In this document: in pieces, positions 618-20,922 of the stretch
Layout: each line of letters starts with the position of its first letter
How positions within the stretch are numbered: the first letter of the stretch is position 1
Source of the DNA: Promethearchaeati archaeon
Lineage (GTDB): Archaea; Asgardarchaeota; Heimdallarchaeia; JABLTI01
Length of the DNA: 29,000 nucleotides
NCBI GenBank assembly: GCA_013166835.1
Contig: JABLTI010000026.1
Location: 1-29,000, forward strand
Reading direction: 5' to 3'
Translations under genes and position numbers: made by a program
The notes under the pieces: model-generated
Told to the model about the DNA's origin: nothing
Databases searched by the model: none
Seen by the model: the letters and a program-made list of their open reading frames with translations, nothing else

Positions 618-2399
618 CTAGTAGACACTTACTTTTTTCTCTTCTTTCAATAAAGTCCTGCCAATCCTATTCATTAAAACAAATTCCAACATGTTTGAAC
701 CTGTTCTATCAAGTTTTATAGCTGGTTTGAATTTTAGATGTTCATTTGGTGAAATTTTCACTCCTTGAATTGAGAGCAGCTTATTTATCCCATCTTCAAT
801 TCTTCTGATTTCAAAGCAACCATTATAAATAGATTTCGAATTATTGCTTATTGTAATTACTTGATTCTTCATCGTTCCAGCCTTCATTACATCTGGGACG
901 GATAAATCAAAAGATAATTGTTTTCTAGTCTTGTTCTTATTAGTTAAATCGATCCTTGTTTTCTTTATTGGAATTGTTTTTGCTGGTATTTTTACAATGT
1001 CTGATCCCATAATCTCGATTGGTTTTTTATGAGTTGTATCTGAGAGAATTTTAACCTTAGTGGAATCCAGCATTTGAGGTTCAAGTATCTTAATAGTTTT
1101 AGTGCTAGTTGCATCAAATGGTTCTTTTTTCTTAAATGTTAATCCATGTTCAAAGATGATTTTCCAATCAATATTTACATCAAGCTTCTGTGTTTGCTCC
1201 ATAATTTGATATCTGTAAGAAACTTCTTTGGCTATTGTGTCTCCCATCCAGTTTCCACGAGTAACGATAATGGTATTTGGTAAAGAGCCAAGAAAAATAT
1301 CATTTCCATTTTGACCGGTCACGTCTATTGGAATCCATCTTCCCGCAACAAGAAATTCTGCAGTTGCATGTCTTTCCCAATTCTGAGCTAAGGCAAATCC
1401 TGCATTTGTTCTTGCAGGGATTCCTGCAGCTCTACAAAGAGCTACGAACAAAGCAGCATATTCTGTGCAATCACCTTCTCCTTTCTCGATCGCATAAGCA
1501 GCCCCGTATTCGTCCGGTTGAATTTTGTATTTTATTTTTCGATTAACAACTTTAGCAGCTTTTTTTGCAAATGATATTGGGTCCTTATTACTTATTTTTG
1601 AAGCAAGTTCTACTATTTTCGAATGATTACTCTCAATGTGCGGTTCTGGACTTAGATACTTTTTCAGAAATTGTTTTTTATAAGGATTTATCTTATAGTT
1701 TTCAGGAATAGATTTTGAAATGATCAGAGGTTGACAATCTGCAAGTGCTGAGAAACTCATAATATGTTCTGCTTGTGGGTCAATTCTTGGTAATTCATAA
1801 TGAATCCAGTGGTTTCCTTCGACATCAGTAGAATCCTTGAGGTTATTTGGGAACGTTTTCAAGTCCTTTATGATTTGTTGTGGGAGAATTGTTATAGGAA
1901 GCGCTACAAAGGCAGAAAAATTTCCAATGGTTTTAGTTGTAGGATTCTTAACTTTGATTTGATAATGAATACGCCATTTTGGAGAAATTGTCTTTGCTGT
2001 AAGATAGGTTTGTAATTTATTTACAGCTGTAACGTTGAAATAGTTCGTACAAACAATCTTATTTCGTGTATCTAGCACATTTGCTTGATAAGAACCGCAA
2101 ATCCAATTTTCAGGAATGATAACATCAAAGTAAACTAACTTAGAAGGATCAATTTCGTGCAAATCTCCTGATACTACTCTTTTTTCCAATGGACTAAGAA
2201 TTTCAATTATACCAGCTTTTACTTTTTGAGCATCGGTTTCGTCTGGATTAATAACTAATCGTAGTTTTTCACCATTTTTTATTGAGTTATGAGATTTTAA
2301 TGGAATGTCTCCTACTTCTGTACTTTGAAAAGAATTAATCAGCACGTTAATGTCCTCGGTTTCTTCACTTCTTTTCTTTCGTTTGTTTCTTACTGTCAA
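618..2399 (-). CDS. Transglutaminase-like (Cys-His-Asp) domain protein, cytoplasmic, multi-domain
   Basis: GDCTEYAALFVALCRAAGIPAR ... HATAEF ... WIPIDVT gives the transglutaminase-like catalytic triad. No signal peptide. Linker with repeated IKIL-type motifs, then a beta-rich C-terminal domain. Confidence 0.88.
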   Translation of the reverse strand: MTVRNKRKKRSEETEDINVLINSFQSTEVGDIPLKSHNSIKNGEKLRLVINPDETDAQKVKAGIIEILSPLEKRVVSGDLHEIDPSKLVYFDVIIPENWICGSYQANVLDTRNKIVCTNYFNVTAVNKLQTYLTAKTISPKWRIHYQIKVKNPTTKTIGNFSAFVALPITILPQQIIKDLKTFPNNLKDSTDVEGNHWIHYELPRIDPQAEHIMSFSALADCQPLIISKSIPENYKINPYKKQFLKKYLSPEPHIESNHSKIVELASKISNKDPISFAKKAAKVVNRKIKYKIQPDEYGAAYAIEKGEGDCTEYAALFVALCRAAGIPARTNAGFALAQNWERHATAEFLVAGRWIPIDVTGQNGNDIFLGSLPNTIIVTRGNWMGDTIAKEVSYRYQIMEQTQKLDVNIDWKIIFEHGLTFKKKEPFDATSTKTIKILEPQMLDSTKVKILSDTTHKKPIEIMGSDIVKIPAKTIPIKKTRIDLTNKNKTRKQLSFDLSVPDVMKAGTMKNQVITISNNSKSIYNGCFEIRRIEDGINKLLSIQGVKISPNEHLKFKPAIKLDRTGSNMLEFVLMNRIGRTLLKEEKKVSVY

Positions 2400-2721
2400 G
2401 TATTTTAATCCCTTTCTTAGGGAGGATCTTTACTGTTGGTTTCTCATCTTCTTTTACTATGTTTTGAGCTGTTGTTTGTACTGGTTTTGGTGGGAGAATT
2501 TTGATGAATTTCAATTCATGTTCTTTCACACCTAATAGTCTTGCAGCAGGACATAAGTCATAATCTTTTACAGCTTGTTTGCAATCAGGACAGAAATATG
2601 CTTGACATTCAGAACAGATGAATAATTCTTTGTAACTACGTGTTCCTGTTGCCAGTTGCTTATTGCAGAGAATGCAAGGTATTTTTTCCGTTCTGAGATT
2701 TACCACTACGACTACAACCAT
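2365..2721 (-). CDS. RING-like Cys-rich zinc-finger protein with low-complexity tail
   Basis: CILC...CSECQAYFCPDC...CP...H pattern. Overlaps the transglutaminase ORF start and resembles 15918..16403. Confidence 0.7.
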   Translation of the reverse strand: MVVVVVVNLRTEKIPCILCNKQLATGTRSYKELFICSECQAYFCPDCKQAVKDYDLCPAARLLGVKEHELKFIKILPPKPVQTTAQNIVKEDEKPTVKILPKKGIKILDSKKQTKEKK

Positions 2722-4615: not shown

Positions 4616-5149
4616 ATGATTTCTTATTTACATATTATGAGTAAACGAACTACAAGTTCTAGATTTTTCATTATTGCGGCTTTCATAGTGTTATTGTTTT
4701 TTGGTGGGTTTTCATTATTTGGTTATTTTGCGGGAAGTATGTTTATGTTTTACTTCATACTTGGATTCGCAGTTCTATCTTTTGTTATGATAATGTTATT
4801 TGCATTAATTATGAGAAAGAAGGGTATACAAGATTGGGATAAAGACAAAGATGAAATTCACTCAAAATTAGCTACTTATACTCCAGAAAAAACAAGCGAT
4901 GAATACAAAGAGTTTGTACAACCACGAGTCCAATCCTCATCTGGCAGATACCGTATTGATGCATATGTGATCACAAATCCACCATCCAACGAATTGTGCA
5001 GAATATCAAAACTACCACTTAGAACTGATCAGGATGTTTTGCAGTGTCCCTCTTGTGAATCATATTTCATTAAGAATTATTTGGAAGATTGGCTTCGAGA
5101 AAATGATGTTTGCCCCGTTTGTAAATTCAAACTCAAAATCATTGTTTAA
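4616..5149 (+). CDS. Membrane-anchored degenerate RING-finger protein (putative E3-like)
   Basis: Two N-terminal hydrophobic helices. C-terminal CRIS...CPSC..F....L..WL....CPVC RING-like spacing. Start may be ATG 4637. Confidence 0.72.
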   Translation: MISYLHIMSKRTTSSRFFIIAAFIVLLFFGGFSLFGYFAGSMFMFYFILGFAVLSFVMIMLFALIMRKKGIQDWDKDKDEIHSKLATYTPEKTSDEYKEFVQPRVQSSSGRYRIDAYVITNPPSNELCRISKLPLRTDQDVLQCPSCESYFIKNYLEDWLRENDVCPVCKFKLKIIV

Positions 5150-5197: not shown

Positions 5198-6721
5198 TTA
5201 ATTTAAGCTGCCAACTTCTTTTTCGACTTCTTCAAGGATCTCGCAAGATTTAACAAGTGCTTTCATTGTGTTATGATCATCGAATAAAGGTCGGTCTTCA
5301 TCAAGGAATTCAACATGTCTTCGAATAACTTCTTTTGCTTTAGTAACTCCATCACCGAACTTGAATTCTCTGAAATCTAGAGCTTGAGCAGCAGCCATAA
5401 ATTCGATGCCTAAAACACCATAGGCATTATCCATGATTTGATTATTCTTCAATGCAGTGTTCATACCCATTGAGACAAAATCCTCTTGATCAGCAGCAGC
5501 TGGAATAGACATAATGCTTGCAGGCATGGATAAGATTCGCATTTCTACGATTTGCATGTCAGCAGCATATTGACTTAACATAAGACCTGACATTAAACCT
5601 GCACCCTTTGTTAGGAAAGGTGGTAAGCCAATACTTAGAGCTGGATGATTTAATCTGTTCATACGTCTTTCAGACATGACACAAACCATAGTAATAGCAG
5701 CACCAGCCATATCCATTGGTAAACAAACTGGAGTTCCTTGGAAATTAGCACCAGTTAACTGTAACTTTTCTTTGGTGAAGAAGACAGGATTATCACCTAC
5801 ACCATTAAGCTCAATTTCTACTTGTGATCGAGCCCAAGCAAGTGCATCATGAGCAGCACCAATAACTTGAGGAGCAGAACGCATTGAGTAAGCATCTTGA
5901 ACTTTTACTTTCAATTTGCCTTCAAACAAGTCTCCACCTTTGAAAAGCTTAGAAAGTGCTGTTGAGCTTCTAATTGCTCCAGCGAAACCTCTAATCTTGT
6001 GCAGTTTAGGAGTATAAGGTTTCATGTTGCCCATTAAAGCTTCAATCGACATTGCGCAAGCAATTTCAGCTTGCTTCAGGAAATTTAAAGCATCATAAAG
6101 CCAAAGAGCACTCATACCTGTAAGGAAATTGGAACCATTAATTGCTGCTAAACCATCCCTAGGTTGCAAGCCAGGAATTTTAATGCCTGCTTTATCCATG
6201 GCTTCTTTACCAGGTATTAATTTACCTTTATAATAGGCTCGTCCTTCACCCAAAAGTAGTAAAGCAATTTGTGACATAGAGCACAAGTCTCCAGAAGCAC
6301 CAACAGAACCTTTTTCCATTACTTCCGGAGTAACTCCTTTATTTAGCATCTCAACTAATGTTTCAGCAATAATCACTCTATTACCAGAATAACCTTGTGT
6401 AAGAACATTAAGGCGACCTAACATAGCAGCACGAACATGTTCAATAGGGGCTGCATCGCCAATGCCTGCAGCATGATTGTAAATTAAGTATTTCTGGAAT
6501 AGCAAGGTTTCCTCTTCATTGAAGAATGTTTCCGAGAATTCTCCAATCCCTGTAGTTATTCCATACATTACCTCTCTTGCTTTTATTTTCTCTTCAAGCA
6601 TATCTCTGCATGCTTGCATCTTTTTTATTGCATCTGGATGCAATTCCACTTTCTCGTTATGACGTGCGACTTTAACAACATCTTCGATTGTTAGTCCTTC
6701 ACCAGTAATCACATATGTCAT
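5198..6721 (-). CDS. hutH: Histidine/aromatic amino acid ammonia-lyase (MIO enzyme), copy 1
   Basis: YGITTGIG, GSVGASGDL (MIO Ala-Ser-Gly), VQDAYSMR, DNP, GANFQG, QEDFVSMG. ATG 6721 with upstream AGAGG preferred to TTG 6754. NH and FQG/QEDF variants leave the substrate less certain. Confidence 0.85.
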   Translation of the reverse strand: MTYVITGEGLTIEDVVKVARHNEKVELHPDAIKKMQACRDMLEEKIKAREVMYGITTGIGEFSETFFNEEETLLFQKYLIYNHAAGIGDAAPIEHVRAAMLGRLNVLTQGYSGNRVIIAETLVEMLNKGVTPEVMEKGSVGASGDLCSMSQIALLLLGEGRAYYKGKLIPGKEAMDKAGIKIPGLQPRDGLAAINGSNFLTGMSALWLYDALNFLKQAEIACAMSIEALMGNMKPYTPKLHKIRGFAGAIRSSTALSKLFKGGDLFEGKLKVKVQDAYSMRSAPQVIGAAHDALAWARSQVEIELNGVGDNPVFFTKEKLQLTGANFQGTPVCLPMDMAGAAITMVCVMSERRMNRLNHPALSIGLPPFLTKGAGLMSGLMLSQYAADMQIVEMRILSMPASIMSIPAAADQEDFVSMGMNTALKNNQIMDNAYGVLGIEFMAAAQALDFREFKFGDGVTKAKEVIRRHVEFLDEDRPLFDDHNTMKALVKSCEILEEVEKEVGSLN

Positions 6722-6896
6722 ATTTCTGCCTCTTAAATGAATAACTAGCTTCAATAATATATCAGTTTAAAATTTTTGTCTAATATTACGATAAATGAAG
6801 TAGTTTGCAGTAAGTAAATAGTACTTCTTGTTGGTATTATTTTAATTAAATTAGACTAGGAAATATACTTAATAGTCAATTTTAGAAAACTCGATT

Positions 6897-8893: not shown

Positions 8894-10846
8894 TTGGCGT
8901 TCCTGAAGCAAACTAAAGCATTTTCATTTTTCATTATCTTTATGCTAGTTTCACTTTCATTACAAGTTGATTCATATTGGAAAAATCCAGAAAGTCAAAA
9001 TGATGTTGTATATCCTAATACAGTCAAAAACTGGACTATGATGCTTTATTTTTGTGCTGATACACGATCTGATTATGTTACTTCTGATCTAAACAATTCT
9101 GGAAATGGTCTCTATATTGACATGCTTGGTACACTTAATTACCTTGATGATAATCTCCAAGCTGGATCTTCGGATTTCATCAATATAATCGCTTTATTTG
9201 ATTATCCTTGGACAGACTTTCATCCTTACGGTTATGCTGAAATGTATGAGATAACTTCAACTGGCAAAAATCGTATAGCTGAACTTGATCGTACAAATAT
9301 GGGTGATCCGCAAACACTAGAAGATTTCATTACTTTTTGTAAAACGAATTATCCTGCGAATTATTATTCACTATCACTTATTGACCATGGAAGAGGATAC
9401 GCTGGATTTTGCTATGATTATCACGCTACTCATCCTTATTGGGCGTATGCTTTAGGGGATTGTTTAACTGTTCAAGAAATTGACACGGTTCTTGGTAATA
9501 CGGGTGGTGTAGATATTTTATGTTTAGATACCTGCTCAGGCGGATCTTTTGAGGTTAGTTGGCAATTTATAGATGAGGTTGATTATCTTCTTGCAGGAGA
9601 ATCCATGCAATGGAATAATGCGCTGGTTCATTCAGTTGAGATGGCATATAATTTGAGCTGTAATGTTGGTTATACTCCTTTTCAGTTTGCTCAAAGTGCT
9701 TTTGATTGTGCTAAAAAAATACAAGTTTATCCTTGGAATAATGGTGGTCGTTGGAAATCGAATTCCTGGTATGATCTAACTCAGTTTGACGTTCTCGGGG
9801 CATCTCAAAATGTGATGGAAATTTTTAGCGATTTATCTGATTTACTCTTGGACGAGTTGAATCACAATTACACCACAAACAGAGAGCTATTTATTGAAAT
9901 TCGTAATATATCCACGCTAGATGAAAAGGCATTTAGTACGAAATCTATGATGGTGGATCTCTATGATTTTGTCAATAATTTATTGCCTTATTGTGATCAA
10001 TTTTATTATGGAGGTCCCATTGCAACCCTAGGATCTGAACTTTTAACTAAAATAACACCAAACACTGCTGCTATTGTACGGGGCGAAGCTCACGATTCGA
10101 GATATGATGGATTATATGGTTTTAGTGTTTGTTTTCCAGATTCATATGATATGTATCAAGGATATCTTTATCCTAATTTCTATGAAGGATTAGATATTTC
10201 TCTAAACACTAAATGGGATGATTTCATATTACGACTATTTCCACAATTAAATTTTAATATCAATCAATTTGAATTTTGGGAATTTCAGTTGAATCTTATC
10301 GATCCTTCTGTTGGTTTACATGTCTTCTTAGAACATGAAACTCTCATAAATCCCATACACATAGGATTAAATGAATTTGCGGATTTTGGTATGGGTGTAG
10401 AACTTGGCTTAGATGGAGCTGAATTTTATGATGATCTTTTATTTGGTAATTCCATGATTCGCATTCCTTCTGAAAGCTTGAATTCTTTTCTCATGAAAGC
10501 TCCTAGCCCAACTGAAATTACTTTCAAAGTGGTAGTTAATGCCACTGCAGCAGCTAGTGCTAGCCAGATGGTTAATTTAACAGTCAAGCATGTAAATAAT
10601 CAATCAGTGGTTTGGCAAGCAAATAAACTAAGCACCTTTGAAAGAGGGCAAACATTGATTTGTAAAGTTTCTACAAATGAAGAAATTACTGATTTCGAAA
10701 TCATTGATTCCCCATTTGATACTCCTAGAACAATTTTAGGATTACCTCTTAAATGGTTCATAGTCACAGTAGTTGGTTGTGTGGTACTATTAGCAATTAT
10801 ATTCACAATTACCTTTTATTTAAAAAAGAAAAAATCAAGAGTCTAG
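8894..10846 (+). CDS. Clostripain-family (C11) cysteine peptidase, secreted and C-terminally anchored
   Basis: Signal peptide, WTMMLYFCAD, NMGDPQTL, YPANYY.L.L.DHGRG (catalytic His), LDTC (catalytic Cys), C-terminal TM helix plus KKKK tail. Confidence 0.9.
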   Translation: MAFLKQTKAFSFFIIFMLVSLSLQVDSYWKNPESQNDVVYPNTVKNWTMMLYFCADTRSDYVTSDLNNSGNGLYIDMLGTLNYLDDNLQAGSSDFINIIALFDYPWTDFHPYGYAEMYEITSTGKNRIAELDRTNMGDPQTLEDFITFCKTNYPANYYSLSLIDHGRGYAGFCYDYHATHPYWAYALGDCLTVQEIDTVLGNTGGVDILCLDTCSGGSFEVSWQFIDEVDYLLAGESMQWNNALVHSVEMAYNLSCNVGYTPFQFAQSAFDCAKKIQVYPWNNGGRWKSNSWYDLTQFDVLGASQNVMEIFSDLSDLLLDELNHNYTTNRELFIEIRNISTLDEKAFSTKSMMVDLYDFVNNLLPYCDQFYYGGPIATLGSELLTKITPNTAAIVRGEAHDSRYDGLYGFSVCFPDSYDMYQGYLYPNFYEGLDISLNTKWDDFILRLFPQLNFNINQFEFWEFQLNLIDPSVGLHVFLEHETLINPIHIGLNEFADFGMGVELGLDGAEFYDDLLFGNSMIRIPSESLNSFLMKAPSPTEITFKVVVNATAAASASQMVNLTVKHVNNQSVVWQANKLSTFERGQTLICKVSTNEEITDFEIIDSPFDTPRTILGLPLKWFIVTVVGCVVLLAIIFTITFYLKKKKSRV

Positions 10847-12574
10847 ATCTATTACAATACTACCTGCTCTTACTAATTCAACTATTTTGTTTATGTCTGG
10901 ATAGATTATTCTATCATGAACTAATTTTGGAACGACTGATCTGATTGTTTTGTAGGCATTGTATGTTTGTTTTCCTAGTGCTTTTTCGTGAGGAATCTTT
11001 TGTATTTCGCACCTCAAATCTATTGCTTGCACTGCTAACATCATTTCGATGGCAAGAATGTATTGAAGGTTTTCAAGGATTTTCGCTGTTTTTCTTGCTG
11101 CAATTGGGCTCATACTTACATGATCTTCAGCTTCATCAGATGTTGGAATTGAATCTACAGATGCCGGGGCTGATAATACTTTGTTTTCTGATACTAACGC
11201 TGCTGCGGTGTATTGAGGCATCATAAAACCACTATTCAATCCTAATTCACTGCGTGGTATCAAAAAGAGACTTAATCCGTCGTTTCTTTTATCATCGATT
11301 AGTTTTGCGCATCGTCTCTCTGAAATATTGCCTACTTCAGCCATAGCGATTGATAAGTAATCCATAACCATAGCAATCGGTTCACCATGGAAATTACCAC
11401 CAGAGTAAATATCAAATTCTAACGGATCTTTTTTGGTGATAAAAATTAATGGATTATCAGTCGCGGCATTAATTTCTCGAGAAATCGTATCACAGCAATG
11501 TGCCAATGTTTCTCTTACTGGGCCCAATACTTGTGGAGTGCACCTTATAGAGTAGTCATCTTGTATTTTTGGCCACTGCTTTTCAAAATCAGCCTTTGAT
11601 CCACCACAATTTGGACAAATCCAATCATCTGGTAAATTGATAAATTCAGTATTAGGAGGTACATTTTGTGACGCATCACCCATTTTCCTATCATAGTAAT
11701 ACCCACAATTCTCTACTTCACATGTGAATAAACTTTCATGCTTTTTCACAAAGACGCTGCCTTTTGTATAGGACCGAAGGTTTTTAGCTACCTCTATTTG
11801 ACCAGGGTGAAATCGTGCTTGATGGATTCTATCGTCAAATTGTTGACTAGCTGCTTTGAGAGCTTCTAATGATAAGGCTGCAGCAATTTCTGCATTCTTG
11901 ATTAAATTACTTGCTTCGTGTAAAACTATACAGGCTATTCCTGCTGAATATTGAGCGCCATTATTTAGAGCTAAGCCTTCTTTGTATGATAATTTTGTAA
12001 TTGGAATCCCGGCTTTTTGCATGCCTTCTTTAGCATTGTATATTTTTCCCTCAAATTTCAGATTGTTTTCTCCTTCACCAATCATCGCCAAAACCATATG
12101 TGATAGTTGTGCTAAATCTCCACTTGCTCCAACAGATCCTTTTATTGGAATTATTGGTAAGACATTTTTGTTTATCATTTGAACTAGATTTTCTAAAGTT
12201 TTTAATTGGCAGCCAGAATATCCTTGTGCAAGTGCAGTCACCCTTAGAACCATCATAGCTTTGACGAAATCATCTCGAGCAGGTTCCCCAACCCCGACAC
12301 AGTGACTTCTTATCAAATTAGTTTGTAATTTAGTAGCATCTTTTTCAGGAATAACAATATCCCGCAATGCGCCAAAACCAGTAGTAATACCATAGATTTT
12401 TTCCCCTGATTCTACAGCTTTTTCAATAGCTTTTCGAGCTAAAATCACTTTTTCTTTCACATTTTCAGATAGCTTCAACTTGTAATCATTTTTCACAATG
12501 TGAACAACATCTTCCAATGAGAGTCCTTCATTATCAAGAATTACTGTTTCTGGCAAGAGCTTAATCCACTCCAA
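10835..12574 (-). CDS. hutH: Histidine ammonia-lyase, copy 2, with inserted rubredoxin domain
   Basis: YGITTGFG, NLIRSH, GSVGASGDL, IQDDYSIRCTPQ, GGNFHGEP, EDHVSM. In-frame rubredoxin at 11579..11728. Start could be TTG 12556. Confidence 0.93.
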   Translation of the reverse strand: MEWIKLLPETVILDNEGLSLEDVVHIVKNDYKLKLSENVKEKVILARKAIEKAVESGEKIYGITTGFGALRDIVIPEKDATKLQTNLIRSHCVGVGEPARDDFVKAMMVLRVTALAQGYSGCQLKTLENLVQMINKNVLPIIPIKGSVGASGDLAQLSHMVLAMIGEGENNLKFEGKIYNAKEGMQKAGIPITKLSYKEGLALNNGAQYSAGIACIVLHEASNLIKNAEIAAALSLEALKAASQQFDDRIHQARFHPGQIEVAKNLRSYTKGSVFVKKHESLFTCEVENCGYYYDRKMGDASQNVPPNTEFINLPDDWICPNCGGSKADFEKQWPKIQDDYSIRCTPQVLGPVRETLAHCCDTISREINAATDNPLIFITKKDPLEFDIYSGGNFHGEPIAMVMDYLSIAMAEVGNISERRCAKLIDDKRNDGLSLFLIPRSELGLNSGFMMPQYTAAALVSENKVLSAPASVDSIPTSDEAEDHVSMSPIAARKTAKILENLQYILAIEMMLAVQAIDLRCEIQKIPHEKALGKQTYNAYKTIRSVVPKLVHDRIIYPDINKIVELVRAGSIVIDLDS

Positions 12575-13888: not shown

Positions 13889-14200
13889 TTATCCTACTTG
13901 AGCACAAGCGTCTAACTTGAAACGTTCATTTGATTCCAATGCTGGTTCAAGCGAACCAAAGGTTGCAGCAGGTGGCAATGCTGTGTTACCAGTCATTTTT
14001 CTCATCATGATAAAACTAACATTGGGTTGCCCGACCTTTTCCTTAGCCCACTTATTGATATCGACACCTTCATCGATGCATCTTTGTACCAAAGTTTTTA
14101 CAACTTCATCTATTGTTGATTCTTCCTCAACAGCTACACGAAATTCTTTTTGTCTTGGCTCAACATCTATAATGACTTCACGCCATATTTCTTCGCTCAT
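13889..14200 (-). CDS. Ubiquitin-like (beta-grasp) modifier with C-terminal Val-Gly
   Basis: Beta-beta-alpha start (EVIIDV..KEFRVAVEEESTIDEVVKTL). FIMMRK..GNTALPPAATFGSL..LESNERFKL parallels ubiquitin [27 protein letters not shown]. Ends AQVG-stop and lies between E1 and E2. ATG 14200 or GTG 14212. Confidence 0.75.
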   Translation of the reverse strand: MSEEIWREVIIDVEPRQKEFRVAVEEESTIDEVVKTLVQRCIDEGVDINKWAKEKVGQPNVSFIMMRKMTGNTALPPAATFGSLEPALESNERFKLDACAQVG

Positions 14201-14279
14201 TGTTTTGTTCACACCTAAGTTATATTGCTGTTTGATGCTTTCTCAGCATCTTTAGTACTCCATCAGGCTTCTGATGGGG

Positions 14280-15917: not shown

Positions 15918-16403
15918 TTACCCAATTTTTTCCCATGTGATGAACTTACCTCGCCTTCTCTTTGTCATTACGAAACCAAAGGAAGACCAGATTTCTTCTT
16001 GGATTTTGGGAGGTTCGAGACTTAGCTCATCGTCTTTATCCTCTTCTTCTGCTTTCTTCTCCACAGCAGCGTAAAAAGGCATGAAGCCCATTTGTTCATC
16101 TTCAAAGAACAATGTCTCTAACAAACCACCAGTTATTCCTTCTGACTTGTTGGATTCAACAAATAGCATGACTTCTTCAATTGGAATTGGTCCAGGACTT
16201 AATTGATGTCTATCAATTCCAAAGATGAAGGATGGACAAGCTCCCGCCATTTTCAAATCGAATTCCTGAATGCATTTTGGGCATATGAATGTTCTACAAA
16301 TTCGACACATTCGCCAACCAACATCAATAGCTTCCCTTAAGGTAGCACGACCATTATGTCCTGCACAACGAATTGATACTGTTGAAGTTGTTATTACAGC
16401 CAT
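15918..16403 (-). CDS. RING-like zinc-finger protein (candidate E3, Nse1-RING-like)
   Basis: CAGH...GWRMCRICRTFICPKC..F.....CP...H gives eight potential ligands in RING-like spacing. Sits between the KITE and JAMM genes. Confidence 0.6.
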   Translation of the reverse strand: MAVITTSTVSIRCAGHNGRATLREAIDVGWRMCRICRTFICPKCIQEFDLKMAGACPSFIFGIDRHQLSPGPIPIEEVMLFVESNKSEGITGGLLETLFFEDEQMGFMPFYAAVEKKAEEEDKDDELSLEPPKIQEEIWSSFGFVMTKRRRGKFITWEKIG

Positions 16404-16427
16404 TTTCTGCTACCTTCTTTTTCTTTT

Positions 16428-17054
16428 TTAGAGCAACATTCCCTCAGTTCTATCGGCGATTTCCTTCCTTCTTTCTGGTGCAATCTCTATCTTCGTTCTA
16501 GCACCGTATCGTATCTTGTTCCCACCTCTCCTAATATAACCTGCAGAAACTAAGGTTCGTAAAATTCTTGTTAAGGAGTATTCTGAATAATAACCTCGTT
16601 TCACTAAACGATCGAAAAGGATGGTTGAAGTTATAGGAATTTCCTCTCGTCTTCGATGATCGGTAGTTTTCTCTATTAGATAAATTATTGTCCCAAGAAC
16701 AGCTTGTTCATCCAATGATAATTCGTTTGGAACAACATAGATAGATCGCAAGCAATACCAAACTTCATTATCAACTACATATGAAATTAATTCTAATCCA
16801 AGTCGCTTCACATTTCTTCCAAAATCTTCTAATAAAGTCTCAAGCTCGAGAAGTGTTAAACCTGTTTTATTTCTTAAATGCCTTTTAGATACCCCAAAAG
16901 CCAATGAGTCATTTTCCATACGTCGTCTGGAAGTTAAAGCAAGGAATAATTGAGGGTCAATCTCTCCGAAATCTTCCTCTAATTTTTCTCTTACGTTATT
17001 AATGGATCTTTTTTCAACTTGTTCTTCATCACTATTTGATTGATTTTCAATCAT
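16428..17054 (-). CDS. KITE-family tandem winged-helix protein (Nse1/Nse3-MAGE/ScpB-like)
   Basis: LGLEL...WYCL and E..VLGTII.LI...L..LVSAGYI....IRYGART.IE resemble Nse1/MAGE WH-A and WH-B (compare WGPRA..E). Size and position downstream of SMC and kleisin fit. Confidence 0.65.
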   Translation of the reverse strand: MIENQSNSDEEQVEKRSINNVREKLEEDFGEIDPQLFLALTSRRRMENDSLAFGVSKRHLRNKTGLTLLELETLLEDFGRNVKRLGLELISYVVDNEVWYCLRSIYVVPNELSLDEQAVLGTIIYLIEKTTDHRRREEIPITSTILFDRLVKRGYYSEYSLTRILRTLVSAGYIRRGGNKIRYGARTKIEIAPERRKEIADRTEGMLL

Positions 17055-17075: not shown

Positions 17076-17939
17076 TTATTTTCTTGTTTTTCTTGGAGTA
17101 ATTACAATTGATTGATTTACAAGATCAAGCTCATCTATCCTCTCAGAAGCAGTTTGCACAGGAATAATTTCAATTGAATCTTTTCCTGTTCGCAAAAGCA
17201 TAATTTGCTTTTCTCTTACTAAGAGTGATATCAAATCAGCGGAAATACTGTCAATTTTGCTTTCAAGTTCAGAAATTTTGAATTGCTTTCCACCAAACTT
17301 TTTCAAGAATTCTTTTTTCAAAGATTCCTTTTGCTCTTTCGTCAATTTGCGTAATGGTAGCGATTCCATGATCGCTATGCCTTTCCCCTCTAGAATTTCA
17401 TCTTCAACGAGGAGTTCTTTCTCGTCTCCTTCAATAATCTGTACTCCACCAACATCATGTAGATTAAACATATCCATATCCAGCGTATTATCTCCTGGCA
17501 TAAACATAATGGCTTTAGTACGTATCTTCACTTCCCATGCAATCATACGTAAACGATCTCTTTCGGTAGTTCCCTCTAAAGCTATTTTCGTATCTCTAGT
17601 TCTTTGCATCTTGGTGAGAGATTGGTATACTCGAGCATCTAATTGTTTGTGTCTATTACTGGCAATGTGTAGGTAAGCATCTGATACTTCTATTCGATCC
17701 TCTTCACTTTCAGCTATTTGTGGAACAGTTCCTTTTTCTAACAAAGTCTTGTATTTCTTTGCGACACTCCACAATAATTTCTCAATCCCATCACTAGTTT
17801 GTTTTTTCTTGGGATCATTTTTCTGCTTATCCGGATTATCATTTGGTTTTAATTTGTTAGAAGATTTCTCACTGTCTTCTTCATTTGTTGATTCCGAAGT
17901 GGATATTTCTATTTCAATATCATTATTGTCTTCTAACAT
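17076..17939 (-). CDS. Putative kleisin (Nse4/ScpA-like) subunit
   Basis: Overlaps the SMC stop by 17 nt. Helical N-terminal region, acidic linker, and a C-terminal winged-helix-like segment ISLLVREKQIML reminiscent of Nse4 SFLVRDG. The call relies heavily on context. Confidence 0.5.
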   Translation of the reverse strand: MLEDNNDIEIEISTSESTNEEDSEKSSNKLKPNDNPDKQKNDPKKKQTSDGIEKLLWSVAKKYKTLLEKGTVPQIAESEEDRIEVSDAYLHIASNRHKQLDARVYQSLTKMQRTRDTKIALEGTTERDRLRMIAWEVKIRTKAIMFMPGDNTLDMDMFNLHDVGGVQIIEGDEKELLVEDEILEGKGIAIMESLPLRKLTKEQKESLKKEFLKKFGGKQFKISELESKIDSISADLISLLVREKQIMLLRTGKDSIEIIPVQTASERIDELDLVNQSIVITPRKTRK

Positions 17940-20922
17940 GTTCAGCTTTTACCACCTTCATCTCAGAAACAACCATGTGATGGATATTATCTGATACATC
18001 AACGTCTAAAGCATCAGGACAAAGCAGAATAAATTGAGGAACAAAGCGAGAATTTTCTCCAGCTAGTTTTTGTGTTCTTACTGCTATACTGAATGCTAAT
18101 GCTTTATTTTTCTCGTCTAATCTCTGTGTGAATTCATCAATAGCATGGATTGGTGAATCCGTTAGAGTATGCATTGCTAAAATGAGCCCTTCAATTGCTA
18201 GGACTTTCTCTCCTCCGCTTAGTTCTCGAAAATCACGATAGGCCTTCCCTTTAGTAATCGCTTCTATGTATAATCCTGCATCTTCTGGTTTATTGATGTT
18301 AGTTACTTTCAATCTTACTTTCTCAAATATTCCTCCTAATAGGAGTTTCATCGAACGTGTGATATTTGTAATAACTTCTTGTAGCTCCCCATTCCAAAAT
18401 GCTAATCTAGCTTCTAAATCTGCACGTAAATTAGTAATATGCTCCTCTCTTTCAACCATATAAACCTTCAAAGATTCAACTTTCACTTTTTGAGCATCTA
18501 TTTTATCTTCATCTACATTACTGATTCCGATTGAATCTAAATGCCCTTCAATTCGGTTTAACTCATCCCTTATTTCAGTATAATTTCTAATTTCTTCTGG
18601 TCGTTCCCCTTTCTGCTTTGCTTGTTCCTCTCTTTCATTTTTTTCTTGTAAATGAGTTTCATATTCAGAATCAAAGTTTAACTCGAGTGTGAGAAGCCGT
18701 GTAGATTTCTCAACTAAACTATGAGATTCTATTCGAAGCAATTCAATTGTTTCATTTATATCCTCAATATTTCTTTTTACTTCATTCTTTTTTATGAAAT
18801 AAGTAGCAAAATCATCATCAGCTTCATCGAGTTCAAGTTTCAATCCATTCTGATGTATTTTGTATTCCTGTGTTTTCGCTTCGATTGTAGCGATGATTTC
18901 ATTTATGGTTTCAATTTTACCCAAGATTTTTTCATCAGGCATACCTAATGCTTGAATTTCTTGATGCAGCTTTGTTATTTCTTTTAGGGTTTTTATTTCA
19001 TCGATTTTTAAATCGCGTGTTTCTTTTTCTAATCGTGCGATTGCAACTCGTGTTTTCCTTTCATTAATTATGGTCGTGAATTGCTTTTCTTCTGATGCTT
19101 TTATCTTCCAACCAAAAGGATTCTTCATTGGTGCAGGTGGTCTTCCGAATCCTCCATGTGATAAATAGTAGCTTTTTCCTGATTTTGTTAGGATATTAAT
19201 ACGGGAATCCCTAGCGATATTTGTTAAAGTATTTGGATCATATTTATCCTCAGCAACACCAGCTTTCACTACTCTTTTCAGAAAGCCTAATGCATAAGGA
19301 TTACCAGATAGGAGATTACTGGCAATATCATTAACTTCTTTGTATGGAGGTTTTTTGAGCATTTCAGATGCTTTTTTGGCATCTTCAGCAGTTACTTTGT
19401 ATACAGAAATTGGGGGTTTCCATCGAGGCCATGTCTCATCATACAATCTTTTTGCAAATCTATAACCCTCATCTGTCTTAGCTAAAAAGGCATAAAGATT
19501 TCGACCGATGAGATTTTTAACAGCATTTCTCCAAGTTTCTTTTCCCTCTTTAATATCGATTAAGGAAATTATTGGTCCGATGATTTCTTTGTCCATAGAT
19601 TGTTTTCTAATTTTATGATAGAAAATTTTCGCAGAATTTGTTAGGTCTTCTTCAAACTTTGTTAAGCGTTGTCCGGAATAGGTTTCTTCGTCTGAAGAAA
19701 ATGAATCAAAATGTGGTTCAACAATTATTCTCCTTCTGTGAATGAGGAGTTCTTTATCTGCATTGGAGTATTTTTCTTGAATCATGGATAACTTTTTTGT
19801 TTTTATTATCAGAGCTTCTTGTCTATCTTGGAGTTTTCTATCCTTTTCACTTAGATTCTTAGTGGCAATGATTTTTTCCATTTCATTTTTTTGTTCGTTA
19901 TATCGTTCAATCTCTTTTCCAAAATTCTCGATATTTTCTTGATCGTTTTGGATTTGAGTTTCTAATGTGATCAACTTTCTATTCTTTATTCGTTCTTGTT
20001 CTTCTACTAATTCTAATTCTTCCTTCAAAACTTGTAATCTATTATTTGTTAAATCAATTTCAGATTTCTTTTTACTTATCGCTTGTTCATTCTCACTTTT
20101 TTGCTTTACAATTGTTAATCGCTGCTTATTTACCCCATCTAATTGTTTCTCTAATCGAGTCACAGATGACCAAGCAAGTTCTGTTTCCAATTTTGTTTTC
20201 ATTATCATTAGTTTCTTCTTTTGATTTAGAATCTTCATTGCATCGTTCCAAAGGTTTAGCAATTTACTTTCAGTTTCATACTTTCTTTTTAATGGTTCAA
20301 TCTCTTGAATGCTTGCTTTTAGTGTCTCTTGAGAGGTTATTACCTCTTCTCGATATTGTTTTAGTCCTGTTACTTCTAAGAGAACTTCCAATTTTCTCTT
20401 GGGACTTTTTGAAGCAAAATCATCTACAGTTCCTTCCCCTGTAAATGCTAATTTATTATCACCGCGAACTCCAATTGATTCAAAGACTCTTCTAACATCT
20501 CGTCTTGTAACCAATCTTCCCCGAATAATTCTTCTTGAGTTATTAATACTATATGTAACGGAACTATCATCCCGGGATATTTTAGCTGTGACCTTAAATG
20601 TATCAAAATCTATCACTGAATTCAAATCTTTATCCAAAGTATGAATTGCTCTTCGACCATTTATGATTGGGTTAGCTATTTCTAATGTAATTGTAGAAAA
20701 ATCATCATTTTTCCCAACTAAACTACCAACACCCTTTGCTTTTGCTCTAGCAGGAATATGTCCGATGCATAAGGTTAATCCATCTAGCACTTGTGTTTTT
20801 CCAGAACCATTTGCTCCTGTAATCAATGAAATAGCTTCTTTAGCTAAATCCACTACTGTGAATTCGTGAAGCATTAGGTTTTCCATGGTTATTTTTTGGA
20901 ATAGTTTAGCTTTTCCATTCAT
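17923..20922 (-). CDS. smc: SMC-family ATPase, SMC5/6-like
   Basis: Walker A GANGSGKT, long coiled coils, central hinge IIGPIISLI......W..AV..LIG..L.AF, signature LSGGEK, Walker B/D-loop SPIHAIDEFTQRLD. 999 aa, with no Rad50 CxxC hook. Confidence 0.9.
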   Translation of the reverse strand: MNGKAKLFQKITMENLMLHEFTVVDLAKEAISLITGANGSGKTQVLDGLTLCIGHIPARAKAKGVGSLVGKNDDFSTITLEIANPIINGRRAIHTLDKDLNSVIDFDTFKVTAKISRDDSSVTYSINNSRRIIRGRLVTRRDVRRVFESIGVRGDNKLAFTGEGTVDDFASKSPKRKLEVLLEVTGLKQYREEVITSQETLKASIQEIEPLKRKYETESKLLNLWNDAMKILNQKKKLMIMKTKLETELAWSSVTRLEKQLDGVNKQRLTIVKQKSENEQAISKKKSEIDLTNNRLQVLKEELELVEEQERIKNRKLITLETQIQNDQENIENFGKEIERYNEQKNEMEKIIATKNLSEKDRKLQDRQEALIIKTKKLSMIQEKYSNADKELLIHRRRIIVEPHFDSFSSDEETYSGQRLTKFEEDLTNSAKIFYHKIRKQSMDKEIIGPIISLIDIKEGKETWRNAVKNLIGRNLYAFLAKTDEGYRFAKRLYDETWPRWKPPISVYKVTAEDAKKASEMLKKPPYKEVNDIASNLLSGNPYALGFLKRVVKAGVAEDKYDPNTLTNIARDSRINILTKSGKSYYLSHGGFGRPPAPMKNPFGWKIKASEEKQFTTIINERKTRVAIARLEKETRDLKIDEIKTLKEITKLHQEIQALGMPDEKILGKIETINEIIATIEAKTQEYKIHQNGLKLELDEADDDFATYFIKKNEVKRNIEDINETIELLRIESHSLVEKSTRLLTLELNFDSEYETHLQEKNEREEQAKQKGERPEEIRNYTEIRDELNRIEGHLDSIGISNVDEDKIDAQKVKVESLKVYMVEREEHITNLRADLEARLAFWNGELQEVITNITRSMKLLLGGIFEKVRLKVTNINKPEDAGLYIEAITKGKAYRDFRELSGGEKVLAIEGLILAMHTLTDSPIHAIDEFTQRLDEKNKALAFSIAVRTQKLAGENSRFVPQFILLCPDALDVDVSDNIHHMVVSEMKVVKAEHVRRQ

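Follow-up and report, generated by a model that had tools for sequence, protein, structure and literature searches.

To our knowledge, no eukaryotic SMC complex other than SMC5/6 has ubiquitin (Nse1) and SUMO (Nse2) ligases built into it. The locus described here, in which a KITE gene is directly followed by a gene for a small zinc-finger protein, places these two genes between an SMC-like gene and a set of genes for a putative ubiquitin-like modifier (Ubl) cascade. It lies in the window, that is, the whole stretch of 29,000 nucleotides (nt) that was analysed, corresponding to positions 1-29,000 of contig JABLTI010000026.1 (assembly GCA_013166835.1) from a Promethearchaeati archaeon (Heimdallarchaeia, JABLTI01). 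Among the closest described systems, Nse1 acts with Ubc13/Mms2 in the ubiquitylation of the kleisin Nse4 (PMC8750328). SMC5/6-related operons made of SMC, kleisin and kite genes have been reported in TACK and Asgard archaea (bioRxiv 10.1101/2024.01.07.573240), as well as by Yoshinaga and Inagaki (PMC8665677). Ubiquitin operons have been described in Caldiarchaeum and Asgard archaea (PMC5654768, PMC6043591), and the Caldiarchaeum cascade of E1, E2 and small RING works in vitro, and the SMC-like protein Rad50 was modified by it (PMC5654768). At the level of titles and abstracts, without supplements, the literature gave no indication of a RING-like gene and a Ubl cascade linked to an SMC-kite operon.

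The KITE and finger genes are numbers three and four of a string of nine head-to-tail genes on the minus strand, which encode, in order, an SMC-like ATPase, a candidate kleisin, the KITE protein, the zinc-finger protein, a JAB peptidase, an E1, a candidate Ubl, an E2-like protein and a protein of 105 amino acids. The successive gaps along the string are -17, 21, 24, 16, 17, 67, 93 and -4 nt, and 365 nt of non-coding DNA are found upstream of the SMC gene. The sequences of a ThiF-type E1, of an E2 in which the HPx...Cys motif is present and of a JAB protein near the archaeal Rpn11-like ones suggest that the string carries a Ubl cascade. On balance we think it somewhat more likely than not that the whole string works as one system, in which the finger is an E3 or adaptor coupling this cascade to an SMC5/6-like complex. 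The proposal is based on gene structure, folds, ligand pattern and gene order, from which we infer the E3 activity, the physical link to the SMC module, what is targeted, and which proteins are the kleisin and the Ubl. A first-pass annotation of the window had described the two genes as a split Nse1.

Examination of the junction revealed that the KITE and finger genes are distinct. The two open reading frames (ORFs), their shared frame and the 24-nt spacer with its TAG stop and an AAGGT resembling a ribosome-binding site, all pointed out in that annotation, are present as described. On the coding strand the spacer reads AAAAGAAAAAGAAGGTAGCAGAAA, with TAG as codon six when read in frame with the KITE gene and with AAGGT 8-12 nt ahead of the finger ATG. 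The window was compared with nine related archaeal loci, in which the spacer measures 20-31 nt. A purine-rich motif (GGAG, GGTG or AAGG) occurs in the spacer upstream of the finger start in all ten loci, and a common reading frame for the two genes was observed in the window and in locus L007 only, the frames being different in the other eight. The shared frame is thus incidental, an accident of this genome, and the separate spacer, motif and frames confirm two real genes throughout the clade, as the first-pass annotation held for the window. Readthrough or a broken fusion gene was also considered and rejected, given two in-frame stops in the window and different frames in eight of the ten loci. 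Fusions of a KITE with a RING-like finger, proposed in the same annotation as something to look for among homologues, did not turn up. Not one of 50 finger-profile matches, whatever its length, includes a KITE portion; when the KITE profile was run with hmmsearch against 130 collected proteins, no finger-family member scored an E below 1; and hhalign of the KITE alignment against fused finger forms gave a probability of 0.1. A search for longer KITE relatives likewise returned none, which is weak evidence.

The finger domain carries a Cys/His pattern that reads, in the window protein, C13-x2-H16, C33-x2-C36-x4-C41-x2-C44, F48, C56-P57, and the motif CxxH...CxxCxxxxCxxC..F...CP noticed in the first pass is therefore both present and conserved. 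Ligands were aligned for the window protein and 50 relatives, five of which have the C-terminal part only and were set aside, leaving 46 sequences. Position 13 is C in 42 of these; position 16 is C in 19, H in 15, D in 8 and another residue in 4. Positions 33 and 36 are C in 46/46, position 41 in 43/46, position 44 in 44/46 and position 56 in 45/46, and H is found at position 66 in 37/46. All nine members lacking H66 have C61, which is found in none of the 37 members with H66, so that the eighth ligand is either H66 or C61. The 46-member alignment hence holds eight putative zinc ligands in four pairs, as in a RING, with the spacing Cx2[C/H/D]-x16-Cx2C-x4-Cx2C-x11-C(P)-x4-C or x9-H, and the predicted ligand pattern is conserved well beyond chance.

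In two relatives, P0101 and P0104, ligands 1, 2, 5 and 6 are all missing, and ligands 3, 4, 7 and 8 are still there. A joint loss of this kind is what a cross-brace predicts, with pairs 1 and 3 in one zinc site and pairs 2 and 4 in the other. Together with top fold matches that are mostly cross-brace domains, the co-loss pattern indicates that the finger adopts a putative cross-brace. In the AF2 model of the 161-amino acid protein (mean pLDDT 83.2, above 93 over residues 1-85), ligands 5 and 6 are located at the start of a helix spanning residues 42-51, which is hydrophobic at position 45 in 37 of the 46 members and at position 48 in 43; a Pro follows ligand 7 (P57) in 34. We take positions 45, 48 and Pro57 to correspond to the sites where RING fingers contact E2 enzymes. 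A further helix at residues 22-28 separates ligand pairs 1 and 2.

Attribution of the finger to a known family relied on a body of weak evidence, none of it significant, which points one way, towards a RING. The family profile searched against PDB sequences gave 25 sub-threshold matches (E 0.27-10), 15 of which are RING-type (CesA 4, NOT4 2, RNF125 1, RAD18 1, TRIM32 1, RNF4 2, RNF31 4). GCN4 constructs and mitoribosomal uS5m account for the remaining ten, and PHD, ZZ and FYVE domains are absent from the 25. In a Pfam scan of 27 members at E<=1, the RING-type models matched were zf-RING_4 in 5, zf-UDP in 3, zf-RING_UBOX in 2, zf-C3HC4 in 2 and IBR in 3, the best sub-threshold E-values being 1.9e-4 for zf-RING_UBOX and 1e-3 for zf-C3HC4. 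The top rows of the Foldseek search with the finger include RING/U-box structures (3lrq, Ring1b-Bmi1, RNF4, RBX1, OsCIE1), PHD, ZZ and the NSE2 SP-RING, and about a third of the named rows of the BFVD fold search are RING- or TRAF-type proteins. None of 17 finger relatives scanned passes a Pfam cut-off, a single-sequence PDB search gave nothing significant for the finger, and the protein Atlas (0.77) gave nothing. Taken together with the ligand pattern, the finger is a predicted cross-brace finger of the RING superfamily, most likely a RING proper. This much of the first-pass call of a RING-like finger stands; a specific likeness to the Nse1 RING is not supported. The spacing is closest to that of C4C4 RINGs of the NOT4 type and is unlike the C4HC3 pattern of Nse1 (Kolesar et al., PMC8750328), in which ligand 5 is a His and not the Cys found here in 43 of 46 members. 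Comparison with the Pfam model of the Nse1 finger, zf-RING-like, gave 0/27, and no Nse1 chain is present among the fold matches listed for the finger.

The most conserved stretch of the 161-amino acid protein lies outside the finger, at residues 131-161. E137, W139, R149, G152 and W157 are invariant over 27 diverse members, V145 is nearly so, and K148 and K153 are invariant in a 12-member set (A3). AF2 models residues 131-160 with a pLDDT of 90-94 as three strands around the KRRRGK turn, and residues 86-130, which are variable, with low confidence. Our guess from this model is a winged-helix-like wing that may bind DNA or a partner. The C-terminal domain has no counterpart in Nse1, and the family of 161-amino acid zinc-finger proteins with this conserved second domain is undescribed. 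Close relatives number 28 (52-97% identity), and the named ones are mostly from Asgard archaea. A profile search with the finger over 1.84 billion representatives retrieved 50 proteins at E<=1e-3, most of them 140-190 amino acids long with both halves present. The finger alone also occurs at the C-terminus of helical proteins of 243-363 amino acids (P0115, P0116, P0118-P0121), after a Cys/His-rich N-terminal region (P0122, P0129) and at the N-terminus of a 397-amino acid protein (P0111). The fused partners in P0111, P0115-P0122 and P0129 match no Pfam family, and fusion to unrelated partners marks the finger as a mobile module. The window itself encodes a stand-alone finger paralogue of 118 amino acids (2365-2721, minus strand) with the ligands Cx2C...Cx2C-x4-Cx2C...CP...H and no C-terminal domain, an orthologue of which is found at 19948-20325 of locus L008.

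The 208-amino acid protein was modelled by AF2 from 22 sequences (mean pLDDT 77.4, pTM 0.63) as two units of helix-strand-helix-helix-strand-strand type, preceded by a long helix at the N-terminus (residues 7-29) and followed by another at the C-terminus. The first unit comprises a helix at 34-41, strands at 43-45 and 51-53, helices at 57-64 and 68-83 and strands at 87-94 and 97-104; the second comprises helices at 114-130, 143-150 and 158-170 and strands at 174-177 and 180-183. Both the model and Foldseek thus give the two consecutive winged-helix domains that characterise a KITE. The top two Foldseek matches in the PDB, 7dg2_A (E 1.3e-3) and 5hvq_C (E 3.1e-3), both with a probability of 1.00, come from entries of the Nse1-Nse3(-Nse4) complex, and no match reaches E<=1e-3. 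Fourteen of the 38 matches listed are Nse1-Nse3, ScpAB/ScpB, MukEF/MukBEF or JetABC entries, ScpAB, MukEF and JetABC making up 12 of the 38; the others listed include the multi-winged-helix SelB, TFIIIC, Pol III subunits, cullins and Fur. The TM-scores, at 0.2-0.34, are low, which a different orientation of the two domains would presumably explain. Foldseek names entries, and from the chain lengths we read the matched chains as Nse1, ScpB, MukE and JetB; ScpB and MukE score close to Nse1.

Sequence models are less specific for this family. Pfam recognises a MarR-type winged helix in the second half only (MarR_2 in 17 of 22 members) and has no match to SMC_Nse1, ScpB, MukE, MAGE or DUF4194 in the 22 members, SMC_Nse1 being matched in 0/22 even at E<=1. 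Neither the single sequence nor a profile retrieved a significant match from PDB sequences, and the protein Atlas returned mere leads, MAGE and DUF4194 at 0.80. Relatives were detected in 54 proteins (50-98% identity), the named ones mostly labelled Heimdallarchaeota or Asgard. By its predicted fold and gene context the 208-amino acid protein is a KITE, as the first-pass annotation had proposed for this tandem winged-helix gene: the tandem is there in the model and the leading fold matches are KITE entries, the two Nse1-Nse3 ones first. Closeness to Nse1 in particular is suggestive only, and the comparison with the SMC_Nse1 and MAGE families that the annotation had in mind came out negative in the Pfam scan of 22 members.

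Conservation of the neighbourhood was followed by a scan of 185,579 species-representative genomes with a pattern from the C-terminal motif of the finger protein (set A3), which yielded 11 loci onto which the neighbouring genes were mapped by tblastn. A pattern of this origin biases the scan to close relatives. The KITE gene is directly upstream of the finger gene in 9/9 assessable archaeal loci (L006 starts inside the finger gene), and the JAB gene is directly downstream in 10/10. The recurring order in Heimdallarchaeota is SMC, candidate kleisin, KITE, finger, JAB, E1, candidate Ubl and E2. The complete nine-gene order is found in L001 (with an SMC gene truncated where the contig begins), L003, L005, L007 and L008, the other loci being cut by contig ends. 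The most independent case is L010, a Sifarchaeum contig from another Asgard phylum, which has KITE, finger, JAB and E1 in this order at 41-56% identity. Within the string, KITE, finger and Ubl are best conserved: their identities in L007 are 74, 75 and 86%, compared with 61% for the SMC protein, 50% for the kleisin and 64% for a neighbouring protease. The longer Heimdall loci mostly share flanking S8 protease and ammonia-lyase (HAL) genes; four of them (L003, L005, L007, L008) have the string in the same place with the same neighbours, and L001 shares the HAL side only. A two-domain homologue with 32% identity is encoded at 8584-9024 of L011, a contig labelled Planctomycetota, beside a kinase-like ORF of 1100 amino acids with a protein-kinase match, and no SMC or E1/E2 genes are present in the 8.5 kb upstream. 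Some further relatives (P0008/P0074, P0013 and L002) carry the labels 'Zixibacteria' or 'Bathyarchaeia', which probably reflect binning errors rather than true finds beyond Asgard archaea; their fingers are 82-83% identical and their KITE 75%.

The other members of the string are listed with their coordinates in the table below. In the SMC-like ATPase, the SMC_hinge model is unmatched in the Pfam scan, and NCBIfam SMC_prok_A/B match at 3e-20, far under the cut-offs of those models. Searches against PDB sequences matched Smc heads, and the near full-length alignments are to Smc6 (residues 8-956 with Smc6 82-1074, E 1e-7 to 4e-7). The 287-amino acid protein had zero matches in Pfam, NCBIfam, PADLOC and PDB sequences; it is a candidate kleisin by its position. 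The top PDB sequence match of the JAB protein is 6fjv, a 'proteasome regulatory subunit N11-like protein' of the archaeal Rpn11-like type (E 3e-4). Family models and PDB sequences gave zero matches for the 107-amino acid protein, which ends in ...QVG followed by a stop, without extension, in 7/7 loci; its position, size and conserved terminal Gly make it a putative Ubl. The PDB matches listed for the E2-like protein are all E2 enzymes, with UBE2N at the top (E 0.0043), and its alignment holds an HP[RN]...C motif (WHPR...GEACI). This closest solved relative, UBE2N/Ubc13, is the E2 of Nse1 according to PMC8750328, in a match too weak for a conclusion. The 105-amino acid protein, without match in the Pfam and NCBIfam scans, has an acidic N-terminal half and a basic tail, is 42-92% identical across six sufficiently long loci and may serve the cascade as a substrate or an adaptor.

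Table. Features of the gene string in the window, with the evidence for each assignment.
Feature	Positions	Strand	Evidence or remarks
SMC-like ATPase, 999 amino acids, first gene of the string	17923..20922	-	Pfam AAA_23 1.9e-12, SMC_N 6e-12
Candidate kleisin, 287 amino acids	17076..17939	-	overlaps SMC stop by 17 nt; position between SMC and KITE
KITE ORF, 208 amino acids, ATG start, TAA stop	16428..17054	-	ORF
Spacer, 24 nt, in-frame TAG and AAGGT	16404..16427	-	sequence
Two-domain zinc-finger ORF, 161 amino acids, ATG start	15918..16403	-	ORF
Finger domain, residues about 8-85, eight predicted ligands in four pairs, putative cross-brace	16149..16382	-	pLDDT, ligand table, weak RING matches
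C-terminal conserved domain, residues 131-161, three strands, basic KRRRGK turn	15921..16013	-	conservation, AF2
JAB/JAMM peptidase, 220 amino acids	15239..15901	-	Pfam Prok-JAB 2.1e-8
E1-like adenylyltransferase, 313 amino acids	14280..15221	-	Pfam ThiF 3.7e-40; NCBIfam Ube1 subfamily 1.5e-17
Candidate ubiquitin-like modifier, 107 amino acids, C-terminus ...CAQVG-stop	13889..14212	-	position, size, terminal Gly
E2-like protein, 251 amino acids	13040..13795	-	Pfam UQ_con 9.6e-4, under cut-off
Acidic/basic protein, 105 amino acids	12726..13043	-	overlaps E2 stop by 4 nt

Elsewhere in the window, two aromatic amino-acid/histidine ammonia-lyase paralogues are encoded on the minus strand (10835-12574 and 5198-6754) and are syntenic in several related loci; the former carries a rubredoxin insertion (Pfam 1.8e-16). 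An ORF of 177 amino acids on the plus strand (4616-5149), hydrophobic in its N-terminal half and rich in Cys in its tail (CPSC ... CPVC), may encode a further RING/U-box-like finger.

In the system that we favour, the SMC-kleisin-KITE module would be of the kind known as SMC5/6-related in TACK and Asgard archaea. The finger would recruit the co-encoded E2~Ubl as a RING-type E3, and the C-terminal domain would tether it to SMC-kleisin-KITE or to its DNA. The complex or its clients would then be modified by the Ubl, a modification that the JAB peptidase would reverse, and finger and cascade would together fill the role of the Nse1 RING in the SMC5/6 complex of eukaryotes. The finger gene, we propose, stands beside the cascade and SMC genes because the cascade acts on or with SMC-kleisin-KITE. 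A number of findings weigh against such a system. No RING model of Pfam is matched at its gathering score in the 27 members, and the 161-amino acid protein of the window has no Pfam match at E<=1. Matches to VAL1_N (5/27), FYVE_2 (4), FYVE (3) and B-box models (4 each) score about like those to RINGs. The fold searches with the finger gave 0/452 PDB matches and 0/500 BFVD matches at E<=1e-3, and the basic linchpin residue after the last ligand is not conserved among the 46 members. The finger is also found in other settings, namely the long helical proteins (P0111, P0115-P0121), P0122 and P0129, the stand-alone paralogue and the Planctomycetota contig. Because they share flanking genes, the Heimdall loci represent one orthologous region and not independent cases. 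Finally, Pfam and PDB matches do not resolve the subfamily of the SMC-like ATPase despite its alignment with Smc6, and the kleisin and Ubl assignments lean on position, with the terminal Gly in addition for the Ubl.

A split Nse1, in which the KITE and finger would be the unfused ancestors or closest living relatives of the Nse1 parts and the Nse1 RING would have arisen by fusion, draws on the Asgard lineage, the KITE-then-finger order (that of the Nse1 domains), the two Nse1-Nse3 entries at the head of the KITE fold matches, the cross-brace finger with CP at ligand 7 and the near full-length alignment of the SMC protein with Smc6. Van Hooff et al., moreover, count the Nse1 RING as an acquisition of eukaryotes that archaeal kites lack, which leaves room for an origin of this kind. 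Yet the Nse1 models zf-RING-like and SMC_Nse1 gave no match (0/27 and 0/22), ligand 5 is Cys where Nse1 has the His of C4HC3, no Nse1 chain is among the finger matches listed and no KITE-finger fusion was found. The finger protein further has a C-terminal domain missing from Nse1, the finger is promiscuous, and ScpB and MukE come close to Nse1 in the KITE fold scores. The data thus neither support nor exclude a pre-fusion Nse1, which we regard as improbable. If it were true, the string would be a living relative of the SMC5/6 ancestor with its own Ubl cascade; ubiquitin-type ligase activity would have been wired to this SMC complex before eukaryotes, and the Nse1 RING would stem from fusion with a neighbour and not from a eukaryotic RING. 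Another reading is that two gene sets merely lie side by side, an operon for SMC, kleisin and KITE and a ubiquitin operon of the Caldiarchaeum type (finger, JAB, E1, Ubl, E2) whose E3 has targets unrelated to SMC; this appears rather unlikely to us. In archaea, genes for ubiquitin, E1, E2, a small RING and Rpn11 are known from operons of their own (PMC5654768), the JAB protein is closest to the solved 'N11-like' protein, and the evidence of gene order comes mostly from related genomes with shared flanking genes. But the gaps between KITE and finger and between finger and JAB are only 24 and 16 nt, without a larger gap there as an operon boundary, Sifarchaeum retains KITE-finger-JAB-E1 (41-56% identity), the finger differs from the RING-H2 of srfp, and the Ubl ends in VG without a propeptide, unlike that of Caldiarchaeum.

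A defence system, in which an SMC-like sensor of the Wadjet or Lamassu kind and a Bil-like Ubl module, with the finger as adaptor, would act against plasmids or viruses, is a distinctly improbable reading as well. PADLOC matched the N-terminal half of the SMC protein to LmuB (3.5e-12), and the JAB and E1 proteins match CBASS/Cap2-Cap3 models and the anti-phage cap2_3 model of NCBIfam. Bacterial E1-E2-Ubl-JAB operons act in defence (bioRxiv 10.1101/2023.09.26.559546), and both SMC5/6 and Wadjet restrict extrachromosomal DNA (PMC10586767). Against these stands the absence of any match to JetA, JetB, JetD or a nuclease effector, JetC reaching only E>=0.02; in PADLOC the kleisin, KITE and finger are unmatched and, the LmuB match to the SMC half aside, neither a JetABCD nor an LmuABC set with its effector was recovered. 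The string has the same position and neighbours in four loci, which does not resemble a defence island of variable make-up; KITE, finger and Ubl are its best conserved parts, ahead of the SMC protein and the neighbouring protease, and the finger has no match in plasmid or phage collections. It is very improbable that the finger is no E3 at all and serves as a zinc-finger reader or DNA-binding accessory (PHD-, ZZ- or FYVE-like) whose winged-helix-like tail regulates or loads the SMC complex. The similar scores of PHD, ZZ, FYVE and B-box domains, the unconserved linchpin and the basic C-terminal hairpin, which looks like a nucleic-acid-binding wing, would fit such a protein. The RING-type proteins are, on the other hand, the sole zinc-finger ones among the PDB profile matches (15/25, with no PHD, ZZ or FYVE), and the gene adjoins those for JAB, E1, Ubl and E2 in a string with no other E3 candidate.

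Compared with known systems, the string meets several of them in part. It shares with the Caldiarchaeum-type operon an E1, an E2 with HPx...Cys, a RING-superfamily finger, a Ubl and an Rpn11-like JAB near 'N11-like', all in one string, the Ubl being recognised by position and terminal Gly. In Caldiarchaeum, srfp is a RING-H2 (C3H2C3) and ubiquitin has a di-Gly and a C-terminal propeptide (PMC5654768), neither of which is found here: the finger is C4C4-like and joined to another domain, the Ubl has a terminal VG in place of GG and lacks a propeptide, and the genes are fused to an SMC operon. With the archaeal SMC-kleisin-kite operons the string has in common the gene order and an SMC protein that is shorter than canonical ones and aligns with Smc6; the excerpts available on such operons mention neither a linked zinc finger nor a Ubl cascade. 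Among single domains, the finger resembles the NOT4-type C4C4 RING (zf-RING_4) and the CesA RING (zf-UDP) in its Cx2C-x(n)-Cx(1-2)C-x4-Cx2C-x11-C(P) spacing and best sub-threshold matches, and differs from them in scores under all cut-offs, a last pair of Cx4C or Cx9H instead of Cx2C and the helix 22-28 between pairs 1 and 2. The KITE protein is like ScpB, MukE and JetB in its tandem winged helix and in following a gene at the kleisin position, and is set apart by the lack of Pfam matches to ScpB, MukE or DUF4194 and by its long N-terminal and C-terminal helices.

The comparison with Nse1 is the most instructive. A KITE whose leading fold matches are Nse1-Nse3 entries, a putative cross-brace finger encoded next to it, an SMC-kleisin setting and a ubiquitin-type E2 at hand all recall Nse1. 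In contrast to the C-terminal C4HC3 RING that Nse1 carries on the same polypeptide, the finger is here a separate gene in 10/10 loci, with the pattern C-[C/H/D]-C-C-C-C-C-[H/C], a Cys as ligand 5 and an extra C-terminal domain. A single KITE gene replaces the Nse1/Nse3 pair, E1, E2, Ubl and JAB are encoded alongside, and there is no detectable sequence likeness to the SMC_Nse1 or zf-RING-like models. Regardless of any ancestry of the finger to the Nse1 RING, the locus offers a small, reconstitutable system for asking how and why Ubl conjugation couples to an SMC machine. The Nse1 RING is a eukaryotic innovation absent from archaeal kites in the available text of van Hooff et al., and this Asgard locus puts a predicted RING-superfamily finger, together with E1, E2, candidate Ubl and JAB, beside an SMC protein, a candidate kleisin and a KITE.

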